Sequence record: PZ445435.1
DNA: 64,000 nucleotides
Source of the DNA: a phage
Strand: one strand, 5' to 3'
Below are positions 16,184 through 61,433 of the stretch, piece after piece. Under the pieces are notes generated by a model. It worked only from the letters and a program-made list of their open reading frames with translations. It had not been told where the DNA came from and did not search any database. Each line of letters starts with the position of its first letter. Within the stretch, counting starts at the first letter, position 1. Both the position numbers and the translations under genes were made by a program.

Positions 16184-16531
16184 TCAATACGGTTTAGCAT
16201 CAAATTTTCTCTCAATTTCAGGCGTGAAATATAATTCTTTACCGCGTTTGGAAAAGCGACCAATAATATGATAATTATTCTCATCAAACGTGATATTACC
16301 AATATCCATAGCTTTCAACCAAATATCGATATTTCTATCCAACTTTATGTCAAAATTCCAATACGGAGAACTATTACCGAAAATACTGCAAGCGGATTCA
16401 GTAAAACAACTACTATAAATCTTATCTTTAGGAACTACTAATTGATAGACACCTTTAATAAACTGAGGACCCTGCCATTTTGGTTGTTTCGTGTCTTTTT
16501 CTAATAGAATAGGGTAATAATTAAAATTCAT
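16184..16531 (-). CDS. hypothetical protein (115 aa) inserted between frd and td
   Basis: ORF track; no recognisable motif. Confidence 0.45.
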   Translation of the reverse strand: MNFNYYPILLEKDTKQPKWQGPQFIKGVYQLVVPKDKIYSSCFTESACSIFGNSSPYWNFDIKLDRNIDIWLKAMDIGNITFDENNYHIIGRFSKRGKELYFTPEIERKFDAKPY

Positions 16532-16550
16532 ATTTCCGCCACGCGTTATT

Positions 16551-17377
<827 letters not shown>

Positions 17378-17388
17378 ATTATCTCCTA

Positions 17389-17721
17389 TTAAAAAGGATC
17401 AGGAACATATCCGCTAGCTTTAATCATTTTAATTAACGTTAACATTCCTTTGTTAACTGCTCGTGAGATTTCATCAAAAACTTCATCACTAAAAAGTTCT
17501 AACACACCCTTCTGAACTTTTAATTTACAGCCAACAATTTCGTCATCGCCTATAGTAAATTCATTACCACCAATTCCTCCGAAAAACTTAATTACACCAG
17601 TTAACTGTCTTCCACGAGAATATGGATCGTGTGATAAATTAATATGAGTCACCCCGGGTACAGTTTTAAATTGGCAGCGAATGTTTACTTGTGAAATTCC
17701 AGTTACATGAATATCAGACAT
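17389..17721 (-). CDS. hypothetical protein (110 aa)
   Basis: ORF track. Confidence 0.45.
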   Translation of the reverse strand: MSDIHVTGISQVNIRCQFKTVPGVTHINLSHDPYSRGRQLTGVIKFFGGIGGNEFTIGDDEIVGCKLKVQKGVLELFSDEVFDEISRAVNKGMLTLIKMIKASGYVPDPF

Positions 17722-17731
17722 AATATTTTCC

Positions 17732-17974
17732 TCAAATAGACTTTTTCACAATTTTCCAATCAGCTTTAAACTGATCGACGTCAGAGTGATAAATCCAAAA
17801 TCCTGCGCTTTCACCGTCTTCATAAAGCGGACACCCATCACATTCATCTTCCCATCCCATGCCACGTAAAAGGTGTTCAGCTTTTTCAACAAGTTCAGAA
17901 TCTTTACCGATGATATTAAAATACCATTTACCTCTAACTTCCGAATCTTTGATGCTCTGACGTTGTAATCTCAT
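17732..17974 (-). CDS. hypothetical protein (80 aa)
   Basis: ORF track. Confidence 0.45.
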   Translation of the reverse strand: MRLQRQSIKDSEVRGKWYFNIIGKDSELVEKAEHLLRGMGWEDECDGCPLYEDGESAGFWIYHSDVDQFKADWKIVKKSI

Positions 17975-18002
17975 TTTATTCTCCTCGGTAGTTGATAGGG
18001 TA

Positions 18003-18032
18003 ATAGTATCACACTACTACCCTTCTGTAAAC
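18003..18032 (-). promoter_or_regulatory. T4-type early promoter with conserved leader cassette
   Basis: GTTTACA ... TGATACTAT then leader CCCTATCAACTACCGAGGAG, also seen near 38284 and 38791. Confidence 0.55.
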
Positions 18033-18418
18033 TACTTTTTGAAAGTTTTTCGCAAAAGTTCAATGATTTCATCTACATTGTTTTCGTCAACAATGCAGTG
18101 AATTTTTGTTACGCCAGAAACTATACCTTCATTAGCGGATTGAGGCTTTTCTAAAGTTACCTCAGTAAAGTATTTGAATTCTTCAGAGTAAATCTCAAAA
18201 TACGTCTCAAGTGGGCCACCCGCCATGTATTCAGTGCCATCTTCCATAGTTACACGTACCACACATTCACCAGCGCAATCATCACTTTCCATTTCATCTA
18301 CAACAAAACTAGGTCCGTGCTTCTCTATTAAATTTAGCATCATTACATTGCAACGGCACTCGTTAGCAAAGTCATTTTTAAATAAAGGGTTAATGATATA
18401 AGTTTTTCCAACTTCCAT
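18032..18418 (-). CDS. hypothetical protein (128 aa)
   Basis: ORF track. Confidence 0.45.
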   Translation of the reverse strand: MEVGKTYIINPLFKNDFANECRCNVMMLNLIEKHGPSFVVDEMESDDCAGECVVRVTMEDGTEYMAGGPLETYFEIYSEEFKYFTEVTLEKPQSANEGIVSGVTKIHCIVDENNVDEIIELLRKTFKK

Positions 18419-18464
18419 TTTGATTTCCTCAGTTTAACGGGGCTATCAAATAGCCCCTTGATAA

Positions 18465-18692
18465 TTATTGTTCAATCAGTCCCATGTAAAATTCTGCGTC
18501 TTCAGAATCCATACCATCACAATATTCATTAGCCATAAAGCGGGTGAGGTCTTCAAGAGGACCTTCAACAACAATTTGAATACTCCAAAATTTAGAATCT
18601 TGCACACTTGTGATACTAAGTTCAGGATAACGATTACGAATAATTTCTTCGATATATTCAAAATCAACGATGTCAATATCAACTTTAGCCAT
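18465..18692 (-). CDS. hypothetical acidic protein (75 aa, start at internal ATG with AAGAGGAAA SD)
   Basis: Upstream part of the track ORF overlaps a promoter, so internal start preferred. Confidence 0.45.
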
Positions 18693-18735
18693 ATTATTTT
18701 CCTCTTTAATCATCAGCAGTATTGCCGATAGTTGT

Positions 18736-18765
18736 ATAGTACCATGGAAGGACAAGGATGTAAAC
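18736..18765 (-). promoter_or_regulatory. T4-type early promoter (-35 GTTTACA, -10 TGGTACTAT)
   Basis: Motif and spacing; directly downstream of gene 32 terminator. Confidence 0.55.
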
Positions 18766-18789
18766 CATTTTGTGAAAAAATTTTTTGAA

Positions 18790-18816
18790 ATAAAAAAGGG
18801 GACCCTAGAGGTCCCC
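18790..18816 (-). terminator. rho-independent terminator downstream of gene 32
   Basis: GGGGACC-loop-GGTCCCC perfect stem followed by U6 on minus strand. Confidence 0.75.
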
Positions 18817-18838
18817 AATTAATTAGTAATATAATCTA

Positions 18839-19747
18839 TTAAAGGTCATTCAAAAGGTCATCCAGGTCCGTGTCATCAGCACTAGATGAACTGCCAGAGC
18901 TTGAGCTCATAAAATCATCTTCAGTTTTTGTTTTGAAGTCATCAACATTGAATGCATCCAAATCATCAGCAACTTTATCAGCTTTCTTAGCGGCAGTTGC
19001 TGCGGCACCACCCATAGCAGCAGTTCCCATAACTTGACTGAACTTAGTGCTCAGTTCTTCAAATGATTTGAATTTATCTTTAGAAGTCATTTCAGAAAGG
19101 TCAACCATTTGTTCGAACAGTTCTTTCTGGAAAGATTCATCGTCAATGTTTGGAATCGCAGATTGATTCAGGAATTTAGATTCATCGTAATTACTAAATC
19201 CAGAAACCTGTTTAACTTTCAGTACAAAGTTAGCACCTTCCCACGGACAAGTTACATCAACTGGAGTTTCACCCATTTCAACATCAACCGCAATCATTGC
19301 ATTGATTTTATCCCAGATTTTCTTACCGAAACGGTATTTAAATACTTTACCTTCGTTTTCTGGAGCAGCTGGGTCTTTTACTACAAGAATGTTAGCCCAG
19401 TAAGAAGTTTTACGTTTAACAAGACTGTACTCTTTATTGTCAGTGTTGTACAGATCATTTTTACTAATGTATTGACATACTGGGCAAGAATCGTAATCAC
19501 CGTGGGTAGATGAACAGTTTTCAATATACCATTTACCATTTTTCTTGAAACCGTGATTTACAAGAATTGCGAATGGTGCTTGTTCATCATTTTTAGACGG
19601 AAGAAAACGAATTACTGCTTGACCGTTACCCGCATTGTCGAGTTTCAGTTTCCACTCGCCTTTATCTTCAGAAGAAAAACCACCTTTATTTCCAGCCAGT
19701 TTAGCCATTTGTGCAGCGAGTTCAGCAGTAGATTTACGTTTAAACAT
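18839..19747 (-). CDS. 32: single-stranded DNA-binding protein gp32
   Basis: Matches recalled T4 gp32, acidic Ser/Asp-rich C-terminal tail. Confidence 0.95.
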
Positions 19748-52066: not shown

Positions 52067-52669
52067 TTATAGATTAAATCCTTCAAAATCAAGAGTATAG
52101 ATAGTATATGTTGAATACTTTTTATACTCATATCTATCTGCAATTCTAAATACACTTCCAGCTGGTATCATTACTTCTTGTTCATCTGAAACTAATTCCA
52201 TATTACGATAACGATGGCTATCCGGAAACTTAAAGTTTGGATTGTATTCTTTACAGCGTAGAGCTTTTATGGCATACTCCTGGAAATTGAATACCATAGG
52301 AGCTTTGAATTCAAAAATAACCTGTGTGTTATACTCTAAACCGGAAGCAAAATGTAGAGCTATATTTTTATCATATGAAGCTGATACGACTTTATCAAAT
52401 GTAATAATATCAATTCCTTGATTTAACACCTGCTTAGTCTCAGCTGGAACACCTCTCCAAAGAGGTTTATCGTTTGGAACCAAACGAGATTTGATTATTT
52501 CATTTAACCAAGTATGGTCATCTGGTTTGTTGGTAATACAATGAATTAAAAGTTCAATTTCAGATAAATTAAACCCTTCAGAAAGTAATTCTTCACGAAT
52601 AGAAGCACGCACCGATGCATCCATTGATTTTATTTTAAAATCTTTTAGTTGCATTACTGAGTATTTCAT
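52067..52669 (-). CDS. modA: ADP-ribosyltransferase ModA
   Basis: 200 aa; paralogue pair with ModB. Confidence 0.75.
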   Translation of the reverse strand: MKYSVMQLKDFKIKSMDASVRASIREELLSEGFNLSEIELLIHCITNKPDDHTWLNEIIKSRLVPNDKPLWRGVPAETKQVLNQGIDIITFDKVVSASYDKNIALHFASGLEYNTQVIFEFKAPMVFNFQEYAIKALRCKEYNPNFKFPDSHRYRNMELVSDEQEVMIPAGSVFRIADRYEYKKYSTYTIYTLDFEGFNL

Positions 52670-53289
52670 TCAACTACCTCAATATCATAAACTTTAAATG
52701 TTCCAAATGAATCGTGTAATTTTTCTTTTGAAATAGAAGTTATTCTATACTTTCCAATTGGAATCATCCATTCCTGTTCACGCACAATCATCATTAAGTT
52801 ATCAGTACGCTCTGAATCTAGCCCATCAGTATCTTCATACGTATACTTAAACTCAGTATTAGGAGAAGAAAGTATAATATCGCTGATATGGTCAGAATAA
52901 TTAAAAGCTTTATCAGTTTTTAAGCGAAGTATTATTTTAGTAAAATATTCAGCATAAGAAAAAGAACATGCTGTGAGCAAACTAGTAGTAAATGAATCTA
53001 CTCTATTCGTTGAAAACACTTCTCCAACTTGTAAATCTTTAATAAGTTCTTCTGTTGATTTTGATATACCACGATATAACTGATAAGGCGATTTAGTTAA
53101 ATGCTTTTTAACGATTTTATTCAACTGCTGATGAAGAGCTTCATTCTTTTTAGCTTCCATACATTGCCAAAGAATTGACTGCTCAAAGTCAGTAAATTTT
53201 TCACAGACTTTTTTATACATATCATATTGAAAATCAACGCTTTCAGCTTTTATAGATAACTGTTCAACATCTGCAAGATTAATAATCAT
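52666..53289 (-). CDS. modB: ADP-ribosyltransferase ModB
   Basis: 207 aa. Confidence 0.75.
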   Translation of the reverse strand: MIINLADVEQLSIKAESVDFQYDMYKKVCEKFTDFEQSILWQCMEAKKNEALHQQLNKIVKKHLTKSPYQLYRGISKSTEELIKDLQVGEVFSTNRVDSFTTSLLTACSFSYAEYFTKIILRLKTDKAFNYSDHISDIILSSPNTEFKYTYEDTDGLDSERTDNLMMIVREQEWMIPIGKYRITSISKEKLHDSFGTFKVYDIEVVE

Positions 53290-53315
53290 GATAGCCTCCG
53301 TATACTTCAGAAGCT

Positions 53316-53345
53316 ATCATATCATTGTTAGGAAGGAAAGTAAAC
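53316..53345 (-). promoter_or_regulatory. candidate T4-type early promoter
   Basis: GTTTAC with weaker -10. Confidence 0.4.
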
Positions 53346-53356
53346 AACTTTTTGAA

Positions 53357-53539
53357 TTATTTTGCCCAGGGAGCCCAGGGCGGAGGGTCAAGATGGTATG
53401 AAGCTAGTTCTTCTAGAAGAGCATCTGGGGCTTCAATTCCATAATTCTGTAATACTATACGGTACTCTTTCTTATAATCACTAGAATCATTCTGGATATT
53501 CGTAGAATGATTATCTTCTAACATCTCAAATAAATCCAT
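53357..53539 (-). CDS. hypothetical protein (60 aa)
   Basis: ORF track. Confidence 0.35.
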   Translation of the reverse strand: MDLFEMLEDNHSTNIQNDSSDYKKEYRIVLQNYGIEAPDALLEELASYHLDPPPWAPWAK

Positions 53540-53547
53540 ATTAATTC

Positions 53548-54018
53548 CTAGCGATAAAAACCAAAATGACGATTAGCTTCAGCAATCTTTCTTTCTTCTT
53601 CGGACATTCTCCATCGTAGTCCAACATCAAAATGAGCCCAGACCATCCTAACAAATGCATTTATATCTTTAATATCTTCAATAATGAATGTTTTACTTTT
53701 AGAAGGTTGACTCGCTAATTTAACTTTATCGTCTTCAAACATGTCAAAAAGACCATATTCATGAGCTCTTTTATAGCCTTTAATAGTTAAAGCTTCAGAA
53801 GAAGAAAATGGTGAATCTGTATTCTGCAAAATATCTTCAGTATGCTTTATAATTAGAATAATATTTTCTGGATATTTTCTTTCTTTTATATCTTTAATTA
53901 AAATATCCGGATTTTCTGCTAAAGGAATAATTAATGAGCATTTTTTATCAAGTGTATTTACTGATTTACCTTCTTTAGACATAAATTCTATTGAATAATG
54001 TTTTGCTACTTCAATCAT
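53548..54018 (-). CDS. hypothetical protein (156 aa)
   Basis: ORF track. Confidence 0.45.
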
Positions 54019-54171
54019 GGGATTTCCTTTTGCCTACTAATGGACCATCGGGAATTTTGTTTTCCTGGATATATTTCTCATTTTCTTCCATCATTTTACT
54101 GCCAATTTTAAGAAGCAAATCTAAGGCTTCATTTGCTTTAGCTTTAGCCTCTTCTAACGTCATGTTCTTGT

Positions 54172-54375
54172 TCATGATTTATCCCCATAGATGTCTCTCA
54201 TCAATTTAAGTGCTGAGCGTTCTAATTTCTTTTCTTTCTCAGCACTAATCATTGATTTCATCCATTCTTCCGATTCGTTCTGCATTTCTTTATTTGCCTG
54301 TTCAACCCAACCATCGTCAATATACATTGAGTTTGGTCTATTGAACCATTCAAGCATTTTCTTCAGAACTTTCAT
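54172..54375 (-). CDS. hypothetical protein (67 aa)
   Basis: ORF track. Confidence 0.4.
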
Positions 54376-54847
54376 TTGTTTTACCTAAAACAATAGTAGG
54401 AGCATCGTCAAATTCATGAATTTTTAGCAATTTTGGATTTAAATTATTCCATACATAATAAATAAAGTATGATAAAGCATCTTCACTCGCAATTATAAAT
54501 TTATTTCCTTCATTTATTTTCCAGTCATATACTGAATCGTACGAATAAAAAGATAAAGGATTACCATTATATTGTTCTGCGCTAACATTAATGTATTCGG
54601 ATTTAGTAAATGCTTCAATTGCTCTAAACGGACTATTTGGCACAGTTTCAATAATTCCGATCTTTTTAAGTTTTATTTCAACATCTTCTGGAACTGGCAT
54701 TGAAACGAAATTTTCTACGAGATACATAGGGTTACAATAACCCTTATCAATCACTACGGCTACAGTAATTGGAACATCTTTAGCAAACGACATGCTATTA
54801 CTGCTAATATACATTTCAAACAAAATTGCTTCCATAATTTTCCTCAA
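54350..54847 (-). CDS. hypothetical protein (165 aa)
   Basis: ORF track. Confidence 0.45.
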
Positions 54848-55185
54848 TCACAAGATGTAGATGAACAGCTAGAATCACAAGAACTTCCGCATGAATCACC
54901 TGCCCATACATGAACAGGGACATTTGTATCATATGAATCAGAACTAGACTGTGTATTCTGTGCATTAGATGATGTAGTAGGTACTGACCAGCGCCAAGGA
55001 TTTTTATAATATTCTTGGGCTTCTTCATAAGTCATAGTAACTGCTTCTACTGTTCCATCTCCCATATAAACATACTCAACTACAGTTAAAGGAAGGTAGT
55101 CATTTGAAATAGGAACTACACCTTCTCCCGGAGTTGTAGAGAAAAAATCTGTAAAGAAATTTTTAAACCAATTAAAGATAAACAT
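54844..55185 (-). CDS. hypothetical protein with Cys/Ser-rich C-terminal tail (113 aa)
   Basis: C-terminus [15 protein letters not shown]. Confidence 0.45.
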
Positions 55186-55397
55186 TACAAAAAGCCTCTT
55201 TGAAATTCGACTCTTTGAAATCCACCCCAGTCAGTATATCGCATTTCAGCATTGAACTCGACTGAACCATCTGCATGCATCATGAATGAATGCGTGACGA
55301 CATCACAATCCCAGCTTTTCATACCCCATTTATCAGAGATAGCTTTATCAAGAACCTTCTGAAGGTCTTCATTTGGTTTAATCCAACGATTTAACAT
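55185..55397 (-). CDS. hypothetical protein (70 aa)
   Basis: ORF track. Confidence 0.4.
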   Translation of the reverse strand: MLNRWIKPNEDLQKVLDKAISDKWGMKSWDCDVVTHSFMMHADGSVEFNAEMRYTDWGGFQRVEFQRGFL

Positions 55398-55423
55398 AGT
55401 GTTCTCCTCTATAAGATATTTTT

Positions 55424-55453
55424 ATTATACCACACTCATTTTGACATGTAAAC
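55424..55453 (-). promoter_or_regulatory. T4-type early promoter (GTTTACA, 18 nt, TATAAT)
   Basis: Consensus elements. Confidence 0.6.
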
Positions 55454-55461
55454 CATAAAAT

Positions 55462-55488
55462 GAAAAAAGGAATCCCGAAGGATTCCTT
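55462..55488 (-). terminator. rho-independent terminator downstream of soc
   Basis: GGAATCC-UUCG-GGAUUCC perfect stem followed by U6. Confidence 0.75.
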
Positions 55489-55495
55489 AAATTAT

Positions 55496-55753
55496 TTAAC
55501 CACCTACACCTGGTGTAGGTGTAACAGTCCAAAGACCTTCATTAGCAGTGATCCATTCAGTACGTTGATTTTCTTCATATACTGTAGAATATGCTGCTTT
55601 TTCAGAAGGGAATGTCTGATAATGAGCACCAGAAATTTTGTGAACATCAGAATAAAGAGGGAAAGCTACAGAAATTTCTTTACCCTGAATTGTACCACCA
55701 TCAACTGCTTGGTCAAATGTTTTAATATTAACATAACCGCGAGTACTAGCCAT
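55496..55753 (-). CDS. soc: small outer capsid protein Soc
   Basis: Matches recalled T4 Soc. Confidence 0.85.
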   Translation of the reverse strand: MASTRGYVNIKTFDQAVDGGTIQGKEISVAFPLYSDVHKISGAHYQTFPSEKAAYSTVYEENQRTEWITANEGLWTVTPTPGVGG

Positions 55754-55769
55754 GTAATTCTCCTTTTAT

Positions 55770-55979
55770 TTAAATTACATGATTATTTATAATAAATTCT
55801 CGCGGAACGTTAAAATACCCGATTTTAGTTAATATAACAACATCGCCGTTAATAATTACCGGAGAATAATCTTCTGGAGCATTAAATTTCCAATGGGCTC
55901 TAATATTATATCCATCAGAACCAAATGCTCGAGTAGCCGGTCTCCCGGCTTTTTGCCACGCGTAGAAATCAAATTTCAT
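55770..55979 (-). CDS. hypothetical protein (69 aa)
   Basis: ORF track. Confidence 0.4.
   Translation of the reverse strand: MKFDFYAWQKAGRPATRAFGSDGYNIRAHWKFNAPEDYSPVIINGDVVILTKIGYFNVPREFIINNHVI
55784..55791 (-). promoter_or_regulatory. late promoter TATAAATA for soc
   Basis: Exact consensus about 30 nt upstream of soc ATG. Confidence 0.6.
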
Positions 55980-56170
55980 TTTGAATGCTCTATAATTAAT
56001 TTTAAAGCTTCTTCACTGACAAAAATTTCGTCAGGACCTTCTATAACTTCAACCATACGAAGTTGATTAGTTAAGAGCTCACATACGAGCTCCTTGTTAT
56101 AATCTTTAAATAGCTGGTCAATACGTTTCTTATGGGCTTTCTTAAGCTGACGCTTATTTAAACGAGCCAT
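55976..56170 (-). CDS. hypothetical protein (64 aa)
   Basis: ORF track. Confidence 0.4.
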   Translation of the reverse strand: MARLNKRQLKKAHKKRIDQLFKDYNKELVCELLTNQLRMVEVIEGPDEIFVSEEALKLIIEHSK

Positions 56171-56688
56171 TAATAACCTCGGTCTTGACGAGCGAAGTTT
56201 TCAGCATTTTTCAGATAATAAAGTTTAAATATTTCTTCAGCTGACATTCCAAGAGCAATGAATTTATTCATGAAAAAGTGAAATTGATCAATCAGTTCAA
56301 ATTTAATTTCAAGTTGATCTTCAGGAGATAAGTCTTGAATTTTCTTGGATTGCATTTCAGAATAACGTTTCTTCCAAGGTTTCCATACGGCAGAAGCTTC
56401 TTTTTCACCATTACTCATACCACCAAGAGAAGTATATAGCTCGCGAGTTTCATCTGCGATATAATCGTCTTGGTTTCGCAACCAAGCAAGAACTTCTCCT
56501 GCAGTTTCAAGTGAATCGGGATGACGATTTGTTTCTGGTTTATCATTAGCCAAACGAATCTGTAAATGCCGCTGCATATCAAGCATAACCTGCAATGGGT
56601 CAATACTGTGCATAATATACTCAGCATATGCACGATTTGCTTTATCAACACCTTCGATCAAATGAGCACATTCATTAAAGTGAGCCAT
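56170..56688 (-). CDS. 56: dCTPase/dUTPase gp56 (MazG-like pyrophosphatase)
   Basis: 172 aa from internal ATG with AAGGA SD; track N-terminal extension is hydrophobic. Confidence 0.75.
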   Translation of the reverse strand: MAHFNECAHLIEGVDKANRAYAEYIMHSIDPLQVMLDMQRHLQIRLANDKPETNRHPDSLETAGEVLAWLRNQDDYIADETRELYTSLGGMSNGEKEASAVWKPWKKRYSEMQSKKIQDLSPEDQLEIKFELIDQFHFFMNKFIALGMSAEEIFKLYYLKNAENFARQDRGY

Positions 56689-56759
56689 TATTTTTCCTTT
56701 CAATTCATGGGTTAGTAGATTAATTATACAATAAATATATAAAGCAATAAGGAGGACAT

Positions 56760-56960
56760 ATGGTACAAAAATTAATGGCACTTGTTAATGCCATAAAAGG
56801 TAATAAGAAACGTATAGCTTTTACTATTTCTGCTATGGTAGGAATTTTACTCTGGAACTTTATTTTATCACCTGTTGCAATTGCACATGGTATTAATATT
56901 CCAGTAGTTACTCTTGATACATTCGTAGATTTAGCATTTGCTTTAGTTGGGTTAATTTAA
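56760..56960 (+). CDS. small membrane protein (66 aa) on plus strand in the 56-61 gap
   Basis: Strong AAGGAGG SD 7 nt upstream of ATG; two hydrophobic segments. Confidence 0.35.
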   Translation: MVQKLMALVNAIKGNKKRIAFTISAMVGILLWNFILSPVAIAHGINIPVVTLDTFVDLAFALVGLI

Positions 56961-57985
56961 ATCTTAGCATATTTAGATAGCCGCATTTTAGCCATCAACC
57001 CCTGGGCAATATTATTTTTCATATATTCCATAATTTGTTCAGGGGTTGCACCTTCCTTTCTAATCATATCATTAACATCTTTTGATTTCCAGGGAGATTT
57101 ATCCCAAAACATAACCCTTTCTCCTGCATCAACTAATTTAGTCATTCGTTTGATAGTGTCAGGGTGACGAGGTTCATTATCTAAAACCCACACTCGTCTA
57201 TCTTTAAATGGAACAACTTCTAGGTCTAATTGACCACCCGTAATAGCTATACCATTTTCAATAAAAAGTGAATCTATAGGTCCTTCTAGAACATATACAT
57301 CACCATCTTTAACTCGTTCGACTCCATATATTTTTGTTGCCTCAGGATAAGCTTTGATGGTGATATATTTTTGAGGAGCATCTTTCTTTAATGCACGTCC
57401 TTGAAAAGACTCAGCTTTTCCATTAGCATTATAAATTGGAATAACAAGACGAGGCTCAGAAATTTCCTTTTTGTATGTTCCCGGTGCTATGCTATTAACT
57501 AATTTAGGCCATTCGGTTGTAAACCAAAGATATTTCCATTTATCCTTTGGAATACAACGAGCTTTTACATATTTTATAATTGGATGGTCTTCCGCCAGTT
57601 TATCTAATCTAACGCATGACGGAAGAGATTTAATTATTTTCTTCTCAGGTTGTTTAGGAAGTTCTTTAGGTTTTTCTACTGGACGACTTTTACCTTTTTC
57701 TTTTCTTATTTCAAAGATATACTCACGATATAAATCAGGTTCAAACTCCTTTAAATATATTCCGATTGGTGCATGATAGTTACAGTTATAACAATGAATA
57801 TTTCCTTCATTATTATCACCATAATACCATCCACGAGCTTTATTCTGGTCGGTTTTTGAATCTCCACAAACAGGGCATCTAAACCGTAATTTAAAAGTTG
57901 AACTATTATTTACTTGTGTGAATTTAGGTAAATGAGCTAATGCACGGTATGCAAACTCATTATCAATCCAAGGTATTGATGACAT
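56957..57985 (-). CDS. 61: DNA primase gp61
   Basis: 342 aa; N-terminal CxxC...CxxC zinc ribbon plus TOPRIM. Confidence 0.9.
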   Translation of the reverse strand: MSSIPWIDNEFAYRALAHLPKFTQVNNSSTFKLRFRCPVCGDSKTDQNKARGWYYGDNNEGNIHCYNCNYHAPIGIYLKEFEPDLYREYIFEIRKEKGKSRPVEKPKELPKQPEKKIIKSLPSCVRLDKLAEDHPIIKYVKARCIPKDKWKYLWFTTEWPKLVNSIAPGTYKKEISEPRLVIPIYNANGKAESFQGRALKKDAPQKYITIKAYPEATKIYGVERVKDGDVYVLEGPIDSLFIENGIAITGGQLDLEVVPFKDRRVWVLDNEPRHPDTIKRMTKLVDAGERVMFWDKSPWKSKDVNDMIRKEGATPEQIMEYMKNNIAQGLMAKMRLSKYAKI

Positions 57986-57987
57986 TT

Positions 57988-58152
57988 TTACTCTTCTTTT
58001 TCTTTAGATTCCTCTTTTTTCTTTTTAGGAATCTGTTCAGGACCTTTATTTACTACAGCGCCTGACGTTGTTCCAGTAGAGATATTTTCAGGATTACCAC
58101 CTGAATCTCCAGCGACCATATCTTCTTTGATAAATTCTTTATATGTTTTCAT
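57988..58152 (-). CDS. small hydrophilic Lys/Glu-rich ORF (54 aa, not in track)
   Basis: Own translation. Confidence 0.3.
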   Translation of the reverse strand: MKTYKEFIKEDMVAGDSGGNPENISTGTTSGAVVNKGPEQIPKKKKEESKEKEE

Positions 58153-58153
58153 A

Positions 58154-58510
58154 TTAACCTCTATTCATAAAAGCATTAAAAATTTGGTCATCAATAGATG
58201 GTGCAGTAATATTTTCTGCATCATTTAGCAAATCATTAATTTCATCAGATAGCATAACACATGTACCTTTATTTCCTGTAATTGTTACTGCACAATTACG
58301 AACGTTTTCTTTATCAAATTTTAGGTTAATATTTTCGTAGTGAAAATCCTTTAATGCCGAATATATCTTTAAAATAAAATTGTCTTTTACTACAATAAAC
58401 CCAACCTCACTATTAAAACGTGGTTCATGGAAACTGTAATAAACCTTTTCATCTATAAAATCGTATGAAATTTTTTCCATTTTTAAATATGAAAATTCAG
58501 AACTATACAT
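58154..58510 (-). CDS. hypothetical protein (118 aa), single-domain paralogue of next ORF
   Basis: Shares FIVVKDN-type core and C-terminal SIDDQIFNAFMNRG with 215-aa neighbour. Confidence 0.5.
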   Translation of the reverse strand: MYSSEFSYLKMEKISYDFIDEKVYYSFHEPRFNSEVGFIVVKDNFILKIYSALKDFHYENINLKFDKENVRNCAVTITGNKGTCVMLSDEINDLLNDAENITAPSIDDQIFNAFMNRG

Positions 58511-58511
58511 A

Positions 58512-59159
58512 TTAACCTTTATTCATAAAAGCATTAAAAATTTGATCGTCAATAGAAACTTTTACTTTAGGCTGTTCTTCAAACGGTAATTCATATCCAC
58601 ATATTACAATTTTGTGATCGATACCAAAATACACAGAAGCAATATGATTAATATTATTTTCAGTGAAATCTAAATCAACATCAATATCTTTTTGACTAAC
58701 GCTCAAAGGATAATTAATACGAATAATTCGATTATCTTTAACAAAGATTCCACCGACATACTCTGTGTTGCGTTTAAAGTTTACACGTTTCCTAAATGAA
58801 AAATATTCAGGTTCTTTATGAGCCCGACTCATAGGACACAATGAGTAGCTAGAATAAGAGATGTCAAATCCTACACCTTCAATATGAATATGAGCCAACG
58901 TGTCATGATTAAACCAATTATAATCATATGCCAAATCCATTATATTGTAATATGTGAAAGGCACCGGATTAACATCATATGTTGTACCTTTAAAATCTGC
59001 CCAGGCAACGATTTCGTTATCTTTAACAATTACAAAAATTGTGCCAATAAGATATCCACGGTTATTTTCATCAGGTGTTATATTATAACATTGTGCATCA
59101 GGAAATTTACCGTATTTAAACGGTGGATTTTTGTGCATATAATAAATCATATTATTCAC
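58512..59159 (-). CDS. hypothetical protein (215 aa), two-domain paralogue
   Basis: Internal duplication; identical C-terminal 14-aa module. Confidence 0.5.
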   Translation of the reverse strand: MNNMIYYMHKNPPFKYGKFPDAQCYNITPDENNRGYLIGTIFVIVKDNEIVAWADFKGTTYDVNPVPFTYYNIMDLAYDYNWFNHDTLAHIHIEGVGFDISYSSYSLCPMSRAHKEPEYFSFRKRVNFKRNTEYVGGIFVKDNRIIRINYPLSVSQKDIDVDLDFTENNINHIASVYFGIDHKIVICGYELPFEEQPKVKVSIDDQIFNAFMNKG

Positions 59160-59445
59160 CTGTGATTTCGGTTACGATATTTTTGTTATTAAAGTTTTTA
59201 TCGCAATACAGAACATAATTATACTGCATTACACCACCAGACTTAAGTTGTTTTTGCACTTCAGCTTTCATTTCAGGACGATCGCGCTCAACGATATTCA
59301 TAATATCTGCTTCAATTTGGGTTTCAACTTCAGTCTGATCCGCAGTCATAGACCATTCGCACAAATCTTTATCATAGCCTGCCATAGCAGGCTGAGCAGC
59401 ACAAGAAGCCAAAGTAAAAATTGTAGCAAAAATAAATTTTTTCAT
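59152..59445 (-). CDS. sp: probable Spackle (periplasmic superinfection-exclusion protein)
   Basis: 97 aa with cleavable signal peptide; position between 61 and 41. Confidence 0.55.
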   Translation of the reverse strand: MKKFIFATIFTLASCAAQPAMAGYDKDLCEWSMTADQTEVETQIEADIMNIVERDRPEMKAEVQKQLKSGGVMQYNYVLYCDKNFNNKNIVTEITGE

Positions 59446-59505
59446 GATAATCTCCTCAGTAGTTTATGTTTATATAGTATCTCAATTTCCAACAAAAGTA
59501 AACAG

Positions 59506-59805
59506 CTATTTTAAAACTTCTGCATAATCACATGTTACAAACTGTTTCTCTAGCTTGACGATTTTACGAAAGTATCTTTTGCATTGGCGAATCTGTCGCT
59601 TCGTGGGGCGAACAGCAAACTTAATAAATTCCACTCGACCAAATGGAGGACTTTCTTCTGCTGGAATATCTAACACCAATTCCCACGTATCTGCAATAAG
59701 TGCTTTGAATTGAGTATTTTTCCTGACGTTATACGGAGTAGGTTTAAATAAAACAATATGCATATTATCCTCGGCAATCCACTTCGCACACTTTCTTGTC
59801 ATCAA
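59506..59805 (-). CDS. hypothetical protein (99 aa)
   Basis: ORF track. Confidence 0.45.
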   Translation of the reverse strand: MMTRKCAKWIAEDNMHIVLFKPTPYNVRKNTQFKALIADTWELVLDIPAEESPPFGRVEFIKFAVRPTKRQIRQCKRYFRKIVKLEKQFVTCDYAEVLK

Positions 59806-59947
59806 TGAAAGCTTTAACTAATGCTTTATTAACTTCAGCATATTGAGTAGTAGCCCATTGAACGTCATCTTTCATCATTGTGATTTCTTTAGTAAACATG
59901 CTTTCATTCTTAAACCACCCCATAAAAACTACCTTTACCAATTCCAT
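59765..59947 (-). CDS. hypothetical protein (60 aa)
   Basis: ORF track. Confidence 0.4.
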   Translation of the reverse strand: MELVKVVFMGWFKNESMFTKEITMMKDDVQWATTQYAEVNKALVKAFIDDKKVCEVDCRG

Positions 59948-59976
59948 AACAATCTCCTCATTTAACCAACAAGACT

Positions 59977-60006
59977 ACTATACCATAGTCTTGTCAGCTT
60001 GTAAAC
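59977..60006 (-). promoter_or_regulatory. T4-type early promoter (GTTTACA, TATAGT within inverted repeat AAGACTA...TAGTCTT)
   Basis: Motif and spacing; overlaps gene 41 stop. Confidence 0.55.
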
Positions 60007-61433
60007 TAAAATTTTAATTCATTTGCCAAAGCATCTAACTGAGCTCGAGTGGATTCATTTCTTTGATAGCGATTCTGCTCAGCCTGAATCTGTTGTGAAC
60101 CTGCTACTTCACTCACTTCAGTTGGAGTAGAATCTTGTTCAATTTCTACCCATTTTTGATTTCCTTTTTGAACACCCATCAAAAACTTATTCCACTTATT
60201 CTTATCACCATATCGTGATTTGATTTGCTTAATGAGTTGTTGTTCAGCAGCTGCTAGCTCCTCGGTTTCAATGACCGCAAGCATAAAATCAGCTGTTGCT
60301 GGAAGACCAGCAGATTCTGCAATATCGCTCATGTTAACATCGGAAGAGTCCCAAGCTTGTTTACCAACCTGTGCTGCAGTCCAAAGAACAGTTTCGGTTT
60401 CAACAGCCAGAGCACGCAATTCCTCTGCGATAGCTTTAACAGTTGTGTAACTATTTTCTGAATAAACTCTAATGCGGCAAGATTTACAAATACCTAGATA
60501 GTCGACAATAATGATTGTTGGAACAAAATTCTTCTTGAGCTTTAATTCATTTAAAAGTGATCGAAATGTATTAGCGTCTGCTCCACCAGTAGGATATTGC
60601 TTAACGATTAAACGACCAAGGGTAGATTTCTCACGCCATTTTTCCATTTTTCCTTTATACTCAGCGTAAGAAATATGCCCATCATCAATGTCATCAAGAG
60701 AAACATCGAGCATGTTAGCATCAATACGTTTAGCACAGACTTCTTCTGCCATTTCCATGGAGATATAAAGAACGTTATGACCAAGCTGCAAATAATCTGC
60801 TGCCAATGAACACAGACCTAATGACTTACCAACGTTAACGCCAGCCATTAAAACGTTCAGTGTTCCAGTCTCAGCTCCACCTTTCGTAATTTTGTTTAGA
60901 ATTCTGAGTTTAAATGGAACCTTACGAGCTTTATTCATATAAGATAGCCAACGCGCTTCATAGTCATCCATCCAATCATGACCAACGTAGCTATCAAATG
61001 AAATTGATAATGCTTGGCGCATGATGTCAGGAATAGCACCTACATCTGGCATTTTCTTATTTCGTTTTTCCGGAGGAAGCTCAGCATTAGTTTGAATTTC
61101 GATTATTTTAGACGTAGCATTAAACATCGCCCTTTGCTGAACATATTTTTCTGTTTCTTTTACTAACCAGCTGTGGTCTTCTGGAGAATCAGCCAGTTTT
61201 GAAATAAGTGTTTTTACACCAGAATATTCTGTTTCAGTAAATGAACTATTTTCTAATGCAACATTTAACGCATTAATAGATGGAACGCTATGATACTCAT
61301 TAACATGAGATTTAATTAATTTGAATGTATTTTTAGCTGGACCACTTTCAAAATATTCTGAATCCATATATGGCCAAACTTTTGAAAAATAAGCTTGATC
61401 AAATATGAGATGAGAAAGAATAATTTCTACCAC
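60006..61433 (-). CDS. 41: replicative DNA helicase gp41 (DnaB family)
   Basis: 475 aa; GVNVGKS Walker A; GTG start codon. Confidence 0.95.
   Translation of the reverse strand: MVEIILSHLIFDQAYFSKVWPYMDSEYFESGPAKNTFKLIKSHVNEYHSVPSINALNVALENSSFTETEYSGVKTLISKLADSPEDHSWLVKETEKYVQQRAMFNATSKIIEIQTNAELPPEKRNKKMPDVGAIPDIMRQALSISFDSYVGHDWMDDYEARWLSYMNKARKVPFKLRILNKITKGGAETGTLNVLMAGVNVGKSLGLCSLAADYLQLGHNVLYISMEMAEEVCAKRIDANMLDVSLDDIDDGHISYAEYKGKMEKWREKSTLGRLIVKQYPTGGADANTFRSLLNELKLKKNFVPTIIIVDYLGICKSCRIRVYSENSYTTVKAIAEELRALAVETETVLWTAAQVGKQAWDSSDVNMSDIAESAGLPATADFMLAVIETEELAAAEQQLIKQIKSRYGDKNKWNKFLMGVQKGNQKWVEIEQDSTPTEVSEVAGSQQIQAEQNRYQRNESTRAQLDALANELKF

Follow-up and report, generated by a model that had tools for sequence, protein, structure and literature searches.

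In phage T4 (NC_000866), the gene for the DNA adenine methyltransferase, dam (16846..17625), lies between gene 56 (16270..16785) and gene 61 (17935..18963). These coordinates bear out the placement from which a preliminary description of the present DNA had started, and T4 does not share the short gap that was noted there. The stretch analysed here, a 64-kb piece of phage DNA referred to as the window throughout, has only 268 bp between the two genes (56689..56956), and no dam-sized open reading frame (ORF) is found inside. This raises the question of whether dam is truly missing from such a genome, what the small ORF in its place represents, and how the layouts with and without dam are related. 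The locus is very probably an 'empty-site' junction, in which genes 56 and 61 flank dam.1, a genuine gene with a predicted late promoter and a predicted membrane protein as its product, and in which dam is not part of the genome type.

Layout of the junction

The window was assigned to a T4-like phage (Tequatrovirus). A 1-kb query around the junction was 100% identical to Escherichia phage PaulHMueller (Bas45, MZ501098.1); the window as a whole is a mosaic, with 100% identity to this phage only over 52100..61100 and 78-97% elsewhere, the lowest values being found in the nrd and long-tail-fibre regions. Phage records and IMG/VR contigs were searched as well, and none of them matched the window over its whole length. 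Gene 56 (dCTPase/dUTPase) occupies 56170..56688 on the minus strand. Its ORF is 100% identical in PaulHMueller, where it is annotated as dCTPase, and its product shows about 70% amino acid identity to T4 gp56 and a weak match to the Pfam family dUTPase_2. Gene 61, annotated as DNA primase in PaulHMueller, is located at 56957..57985, likewise on the minus strand, and encodes a protein with 99.4% amino acid identity to T4 gp61 and a weak match to the DnaG core family of Pfam.

Between the two, a 66-codon ORF (56760..56960) runs on the plus strand. It corresponds to dam.1 (RB69ORF029w / RB32ORF030w; phrog_2024), encodes MVQKLMALVNAIKGNKKRIAFTISAMVGILLWNFILSPVAIAHGINIPVVTLDTFVDLAFALVGLI, and has the hypothetical protein bas45_0141 as its counterpart in PaulHMueller. 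A Shine-Dalgarno (SD) sequence, AAGGAGG (56749..56755), stands 4 nt ahead of the ATG, and the ORF is convergent with gene 61, the two stop codons overlapping by 4 nt (56957..56960) in the palindrome TTAA. The length of the gap, the hydrophobic plus-strand ORF of 66 codons, its SD and its convergence with gene 61 can all be read directly from the sequence, as the preliminary description had reported.

Absence of dam

The suspected absence of dam was upheld by two types of search, neither of which recovered a Dam homologue from the window or from its nearest relative, PaulHMueller, whose complete genome was used. A tblastn search with T4 Dam, the check proposed beforehand, gave no match in the window at E<=10 and a best E of 1.4 over the 170,053 bp of PaulHMueller, against 1.8e-176 in the T4 control. 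Six diverse phage Dam proteins served to build a profile HMM, which was run with hmmsearch --max (filters off) on all six-frame ORFs of at least 60 aa; its best E was 0.44 in the window and 0.17 across the window and PaulHMueller together, compared with 1.9e-155 for the T4 control. Furthermore, a methyltransferase is named in none of the annotation tables covering the PaulHMueller record.

The catalytic motif IV, (D/N/S)PP(Y/F/W), was scanned for in all frames of the window of at least 120 codons and matched three times, always in unrelated contexts: NPPW in an endonuclease II homologue, NPPF at the N-terminus of a 61.2-like ORF, and SPPY in an antisense frame. None of these three frames scores with the Dam profile, and no methyltransferase-sized ORF in the window combines motif IV with a SAM-binding motif. 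Dam is absent, then, from the 64-kb window and from the nearest complete relative. About 100 kb of the source genome lies outside the window and, since the window is a mosaic with partial identity to PaulHMueller, a dam gene could strictly speaking still be present elsewhere in the exact source phage.

The lack of dam had been taken to imply a loss of the protection conferred by GATC methylation, which is not borne out where it was tested. The tested set included BASEL isolates (PMC8594841), several of which share the dam-less junction at 98.5-100% identity; the absence of Dam therefore had no obvious cost in those assays. As a separate observation, GATC is strongly under-represented in the window, with 75 sites observed versus 208 expected from base composition, and likewise in PaulHMueller, with 198 versus 557, both phages being without Dam.

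Comparison with T4, T2 and T6

The small ORF had been proposed as a lineage-specific replacement of dam, and this part of the preliminary description did not hold. The 310-bp stretch between dam and gene 61 of T4, unannotated in RefSeq, contains the same 66-codon ORF at 17738..17938 on the plus strand (NC_000866.4; 4739..4939 of the T4 locus L003), with 64 of the 66 residues identical, and this ORF is annotated in other T4 records. In T2, the order is gene 56, dam, a 181-aa hypothetical ORF (T2_31), the small ORF ('similar to RB69ORF029w; RB32030w') and gene 61. T6 has gene 56, a small ORF annotated as 'dam.1' and gene 61, with no dam at the site. The T6 'dam.1', the T2 ORF and the T4 ORF all encode the same 66-aa protein, at 95% identity or more, and share both their orientation and their location at the 3' end of gene 61. 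As the ORF coexists with dam in T4, and equally stands beside it in T2, it is not a replacement for dam; moreover, it is kept at this position in at least four genera.

In layout, the window matches the classical phage T6 (MH550421), which is dam-less in the same way. Its 71-bp spacer is nearly identical to that of the window, including the mot box, the -10 element and the late-promoter motif AATAAATA described below, and the two junctions differ by a few point differences only. The annotated start of T6 dam.1 lies 15 nt further in than that of the window, since the ATG of the window is ATT in T6. T4 (X01416, 'gene 69 spanning an origin of replication') has the same flanking genes and the same mot-box promoter of gene 56, and it shares with the window the small ORF, the SD and the ATAAATA motif ahead of the end of gene 61. 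It differs in having about 880 bp more between the mot box and the dam.1 SD, which hold dam, the early promoter of dam, P(E)17.40, and a 28-codon remnant of a nuclease-like ORF. The omission of dam.1 from T4 RefSeq has a practical side: the gene is conserved, under selection and, judging from its promoter motif, apparently expressed late, and T4 omics studies relying on that annotation would miss it.

Signals for expression at the junction

On the minus strand, a putative MotA-type middle promoter of gene 56 (56723..56748) was recognised by sequence match. The mot box ATTGCTTTA (56748->56740) is followed, after an 11-nt spacer, by the -10 element TATAAT (56728->56723), in agreement with the pattern sought, in which (a/t)(a/t)TGCTT(t/c)A precedes a -10 of the sigma-70 type by about 12 bp. 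In the T4 record X01416, the stop codon of dam is immediately followed by the annotated mot box and -10 of P(M)16.53. This is the homologous position, and the element of the window is probably the counterpart of this middle promoter of oriA and gene 56.

On the opposite strand, the motif AATAAATA (56730..56737), a putative T4-type late-promoter core with the consensus TATAAATA, sits inside the spacer of the opposing middle promoter, 22 nt before the dam.1 ATG. The shorter core ATAAATA recurs 16-22 nt upstream of the ATG in Tequatrovirus, both with and without dam, and in Mosigvirus, Gaprivervirus and Kanagawavirus, in flanks that are themselves unalignable, and the two strands of the 64-kb window together have only 15 copies of it. 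The full motif reads AATAAATA in the window, T6 and Mosigvirus, GATAAATA in T4 and the T2-like phages, the exact consensus TATAAATA in Kanagawavirus Q7622, CATAAATA in Gaprivervirus, and CATAAATA and CTAAATA in the Kanagawavirus-like contigs L022 and L025. Most lineages have A, G or C in place of T at position -13, and this position is known to vary between A and T in T4-like late promoters (PMC1524935). The arrangement at dam.1 fits that of the T4 late genes, whose transcription depends on gp55, gp33 and gp45 and in which an element of the TATAAATA type serves as the -10, some 6 nt ahead of the start and close to the SD. Since the ATAAATA core is conserved in every lineage examined, with CTAAATA in one contig, and rare in the window, and since variation at -13 is documented, dam.1 is probably transcribed late, in a gp55-dependent manner, from a predicted start near 56743. 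The SD is in turn conserved upstream of the dam.1 homologues of all genera examined.

An exact TATAAATA was also found at 55784..55791 on the minus strand, 30 nt ahead of the position at which soc starts (ATG at 55753). It is the expected late promoter of soc and offers an internal positive example of the motif.

A terminator scan placed a terminator-like hairpin of the gene 61 transcript at 56765..56794 (minus strand). Its 8-bp stem and 4-nt loop (56794..56775) come before a U-run, UAAUUUUUGU, and the whole is embedded in codons 6-12 of dam.1 in antisense orientation. The fold is present in the window and in T4 and absent in Mosigvirus, Kanagawavirus and Gaprivervirus; a terminator is annotated at this site in several related records. 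In the arrangement that these elements suggest, gene 61 would end on the minus strand and its transcript would meet the hairpin, after which the MotA-dependent middle promoter, as the counterpart of P(M)16.53/oriA, would drive gene 56. On the plus strand, the gp55-type core AATAAATA, placed back-to-back with the middle promoter, and the strong SD would drive dam.1.

Conservation of dam.1

Taken by itself, a 66-codon ORF is not beyond chance in an AT-rich window, where many spurious ORFs of similar size are listed. The dam.1 protein, however, matches phrog_2024 over its full length (E=1.4e-31, residues 2-66 on profile positions 1-65 of 65), and the homologues from Mosigvirus and Kanagawavirus match the same profile at 2e-27 and 1.5e-24. 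A tblastn search found dam.1 in a total of 696 phage records, 502 at 90% identity or more and 194 at about 50-56%, and, among the rows listed, all those that give its neighbours place it beside the primase gene. Synteny is kept across Tequatrovirus, Mosigvirus, Gaprivervirus and Kanagawavirus, the ORF running on the plus strand towards the 3' end of the primase gene. The DNA of dam.1 is essentially unalignable between these genera, and the protein keeps its length, place and orientation; a blastn search with the junction returned only three records at 60-80% identity, the one listed covering 86 nt at 77%. Pairwise dN/dS is mostly in the range 0.08-0.40, which denotes purifying selection, and the substitutions between genera fall on codon positions 1, 2 and 3 in proportions such as 29/12/41. 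Both protein alignments show W32-N33-F34, G44 and G64-L65 without any change; all phage homologues share P38 and P48, and position 53 keeps an acidic residue.

The family is confined to enterobacterial T-even genera. A word-indexed protein search with dam.1 found only relatives with more than 90% identity, and an exhaustive HMMER search of 1.8 billion representatives added about three full-length clusters, some fragments and spurious matches to long repetitive proteins. No Pfam family matched the protein, Rfam returned only a chance miRNA match, and literature searches on 'dam.1', T4 ribosome profiling and T4 small proteins found nothing relevant; the literature on dam in T-even phages yielded general background only.

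The same sequence could in principle be conserved for another reason, namely as the 3' untranslated region and terminator of gene 61 together with the promoter region of gene 56, so that the 66-codon ORF would not be a gene at all. A minus-strand terminator-like hairpin does lie inside the ORF, the T4 RefSeq annotators did not call it, and spurious ORFs of similar length antisense to genes are numerous in an AT-rich genome. This explanation is hardly tenable in view of the protein, which is recovered in the 194 more distant records although the DNA is unalignable between genera, and of the 29/12/41 pattern and the mostly low dN/dS. Furthermore, the hairpin is not conserved outside Tequatrovirus, where the ORF, the SD and ATAAATA are, and no Rfam family matches. 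The ORF as an artefact of the gene 61 terminator was dropped on the codon-position evidence. What identifies dam.1 as a real gene is thus its conservation across genera, the way in which substitutions are distributed over the codon positions, its SD and a promoter motif that is likewise conserved.

A different role for the plus strand would be that of antisense control, the late transcript mainly serving to lower the primase mRNA late and the peptide being secondary. Consistent with it, dam.1 and gene 61 are convergent and overlapping, the terminator scan gave none on the plus strand over the 440 bp or so that follow the ORF, and the arrangement beside gene 61 is conserved in all genera examined. 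We consider it very unlikely, as the purifying selection on the amino acid sequence and the conserved strong SD indicate that the protein matters; in addition, about 110 bp separate the end of the ORF from gene 61 in Gaprivervirus, and the overlap itself is therefore not conserved. The reading of dam.1 as a protein-coding gene is followed below.

Predicted structure and role of the dam.1 protein

The dam.1 protein is strongly hydrophobic (GRAVY 1.25). Its AlphaFold2 (AF2) model has helices at residues 2-12, 16-42 and 52-63 and a mean pLDDT of 80, a value to be read with the knowledge that AF2 is not membrane-aware and that the alignment behind the model comprised 9 sequences only. The layout consists of an N-terminal amphipathic helix, a KGNKKR basic patch, one long transmembrane (TM) helix and a short C-terminal acidic/hydrophobic helix, the position of the patch ahead of the TM helix following from hydropathy and charge. 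In the topology suggested by these features, the basic N-terminus would be cytoplasmic, followed by the single TM helix, and the short C-terminal helix would lie at the periplasmic face. Most likely, therefore, judging from the model and the promoter motif, dam.1 would be a small, N-in, single-pass inner-membrane protein made late. As to its role, an accessory envelope or lysis-phase factor appears the most likely one, at low confidence.

Small size, high hydrophobicity, a putative late promoter and a basic cytoplasmic patch are also what a holin, pinholin or antiholin-like protein involved in the timing of lysis could present, and 'Holin' is the automatically assigned name of one of the family's UniProt entries. 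Such an identity is nonetheless unlikely. The protein has no similarity to the holin families of Pfam or PHROGs, and a fold search with its AF2 model against viral structures returned only its own family, along with unrelated holins at E~10. Its C-terminus (ALVGLI) is hydrophobic, where holins typically end in a charged hydrophilic tail. Annotations of a T-type holin, of the antiholin gene rI, of rIII and of spanins are found elsewhere in PaulHMueller, and dam.1 has no lysis gene nearby. Holin identity was accordingly rejected: of the features that mark such proteins only the transmembrane domain is present, with no family match, charged tail or lysis linkage.

Prevalence of the dam-less junction

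The complete 272-bp dam-less junction is covered in 334 of the 505 matching phage records; in the rest, the match begins only at the SD of the small ORF, which corresponds to the dam-containing layout. Most sequenced Tequatroviruses therefore have the dam-less junction. A search for T4-type Dam gave 182 phage records with 90% identity or more. Outside the genus, genes 56 and 61 flank a dam.1 homologue in Mosigvirus (AlbertHofmann), Gaprivervirus (TH57) and Kanagawavirus (Q7622), with no Dam match in any of the three; Q7622 has an extra 75-aa ORF between gene 56 and the homologue. The dam-less junction is, in other words, an ordinary and already catalogued gene-content polymorphism, and dam.1 is already annotated as a hypothetical gene, its product being listed as a hypothetical protein in hundreds of genomes. 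For the window itself the missing dam matters little, given that the dam-less condition is the majority state and also that of the classical phage T6.

A nuclease-like partner of dam in related phages

In T2-like phages, dam does not stand alone at this site. In the T2-like IMG/VR sequence L011, a 186-aa ORF overlaps the start of dam by 1 nt. It has an invariant D72...E85-I-K87 motif and a weak match to the Pfam family DpnII (E=0.0045, below the cut-off), and a search of the PDB gave no sequence match. The ORF is present at 95% identity or more in about 155 phage records, T2 included, and in every locus examined its homologues at 42-63% identity stand immediately ahead of a MethyltransfD12 gene. 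Such cassettes occupy the same 61-56 site in Kanagawavirus-like metagenomic contigs and the denB-ndd interval in Klebsiella phage SmallBear. In the Kanagawavirus-like contigs, a Dam with 69-70% identity to T4 Dam is found with the nuclease-like ORF between 61/dam.1 and 56.

T4 keeps only the last 28 codons or so of the nuclease-like ORF, and the missing segment is bounded by TTTGTGAT repeats in L011. The dam-only state of T4 looks like the outcome of a deletion of about 560 bp between these 8-bp direct repeats (L003 4627..4738 vs L011 2342..3000), and P(E)17.40 falls within the T4 remnant stretch (L003 4627..4738). In sum, T2-like phages carry a two-gene cassette, made up of the 186-aa PD-(D/E)XK nuclease-like ORF and dam, between the dam.1 SD region and the mot box of gene 56; T4 has dam and the nuclease-like remnant, and T6, the phage of the window and most sequenced Tequatroviruses have neither.

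The cassette resembles the DpnII-type modules of Type II R-M systems, in that T2 (T2_31 and dam), L011 and the loci L021-L025 show a gene of the PD-(D/E)XK nuclease fold upstream of, or overlapping, a MethyltransfD12 gene. It differs from them in that the nuclease-like protein of the relatives is short (186 aa) and of putative activity, and the cassette is wholly missing from the window. The pairing with MethyltransfD12 makes the T-even dam look like the methylase half of an R-M-like cassette. That dam is accompanied by a restriction-endonuclease-like gene in T2 and about 150 other phage records may shed light on where the 'orphan' Dam of T4 came from and what it does. A more far-reaching version, which we regard as doubtful, would have the 56-61 interval as a recurrent docking site of a mobile R-M-like cassette (PD-(D/E)XK nuclease and Dam), serving T2-like phages as a weapon against dam-less co-infecting relatives. 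Orphan Dam would then be the surviving M half, and the window a naive empty site whose sole resident is dam.1, a late inner-membrane protein. Only two by-products of the comparison are mildly novel: that RefSeq omits dam.1 from T4, and that dam has a nuclease-like partner in the T2-like phages.

Direction of the polymorphism

An empty site may be original, or it may be what is left after dam, or the cassette of nuclease and dam, was lost by secondary deletion in this lineage. Loss is possible, if clearly the less probable course of events. The Kanagawavirus-like contigs carry the cassette at the same locus, so that its presence there may be old, and T4 demonstrates that deletions take place at the site, its 186-aa ORF having been removed between the TTTGTGAT direct repeats. 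The 71-bp spacer of the window, in turn, contains no remnant of dam or of the 186-aa ORF. Compared by eye, the spacers of the dam-containing and dam-less layouts differ substantially, which speaks against a simple deletion of recent date. At the site, dam is missing from T6, Mosigvirus, Gaprivervirus and Kanagawavirus Q7622 alike, and the location of the cassette at another locus in SmallBear points to mobility; the dam of Pseudotevenvirus is likewise located elsewhere, beside nrdC/49. A simple deletion between the TTAATT motifs flanking T4 dam was also considered and does not reproduce the junction of the window.

Given the lack of scars, the diverged spacers and the several outgroup genera with an empty site, the view that this lineage never had dam at the junction, or lost it long ago, is favoured. 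An ancient presence of the cassette followed by repeated loss is also conceivable, since the cassette is found at the same locus in a lineage as distant as the Kanagawavirus-like one.

Surroundings of the junction

Two features of the neighbourhood deserve a brief description. Identity to T4 breaks sharply at the junction, from 99.4% in gp61 and 97% in dam.1 to only about 70% in gp56 (window 55770..56688). Downstream of gene 56, the window has two small soc.2-/soc.1-like ORFs (64 and 69 aa), in the place taken in T4 by segF, a homing endonuclease gene. On the other side, two adjacent minus-strand ORFs of 118 and 215 aa (58154..58510 and 58512..59159) occupy the position of T4 61.2. They share a near-identical C-terminal peptide, SIDDQIFNAFMNRG in one and SIDDQIFNAFMNKG in the other, which suggests that a tandem duplication or an insertion may lie behind the pair.
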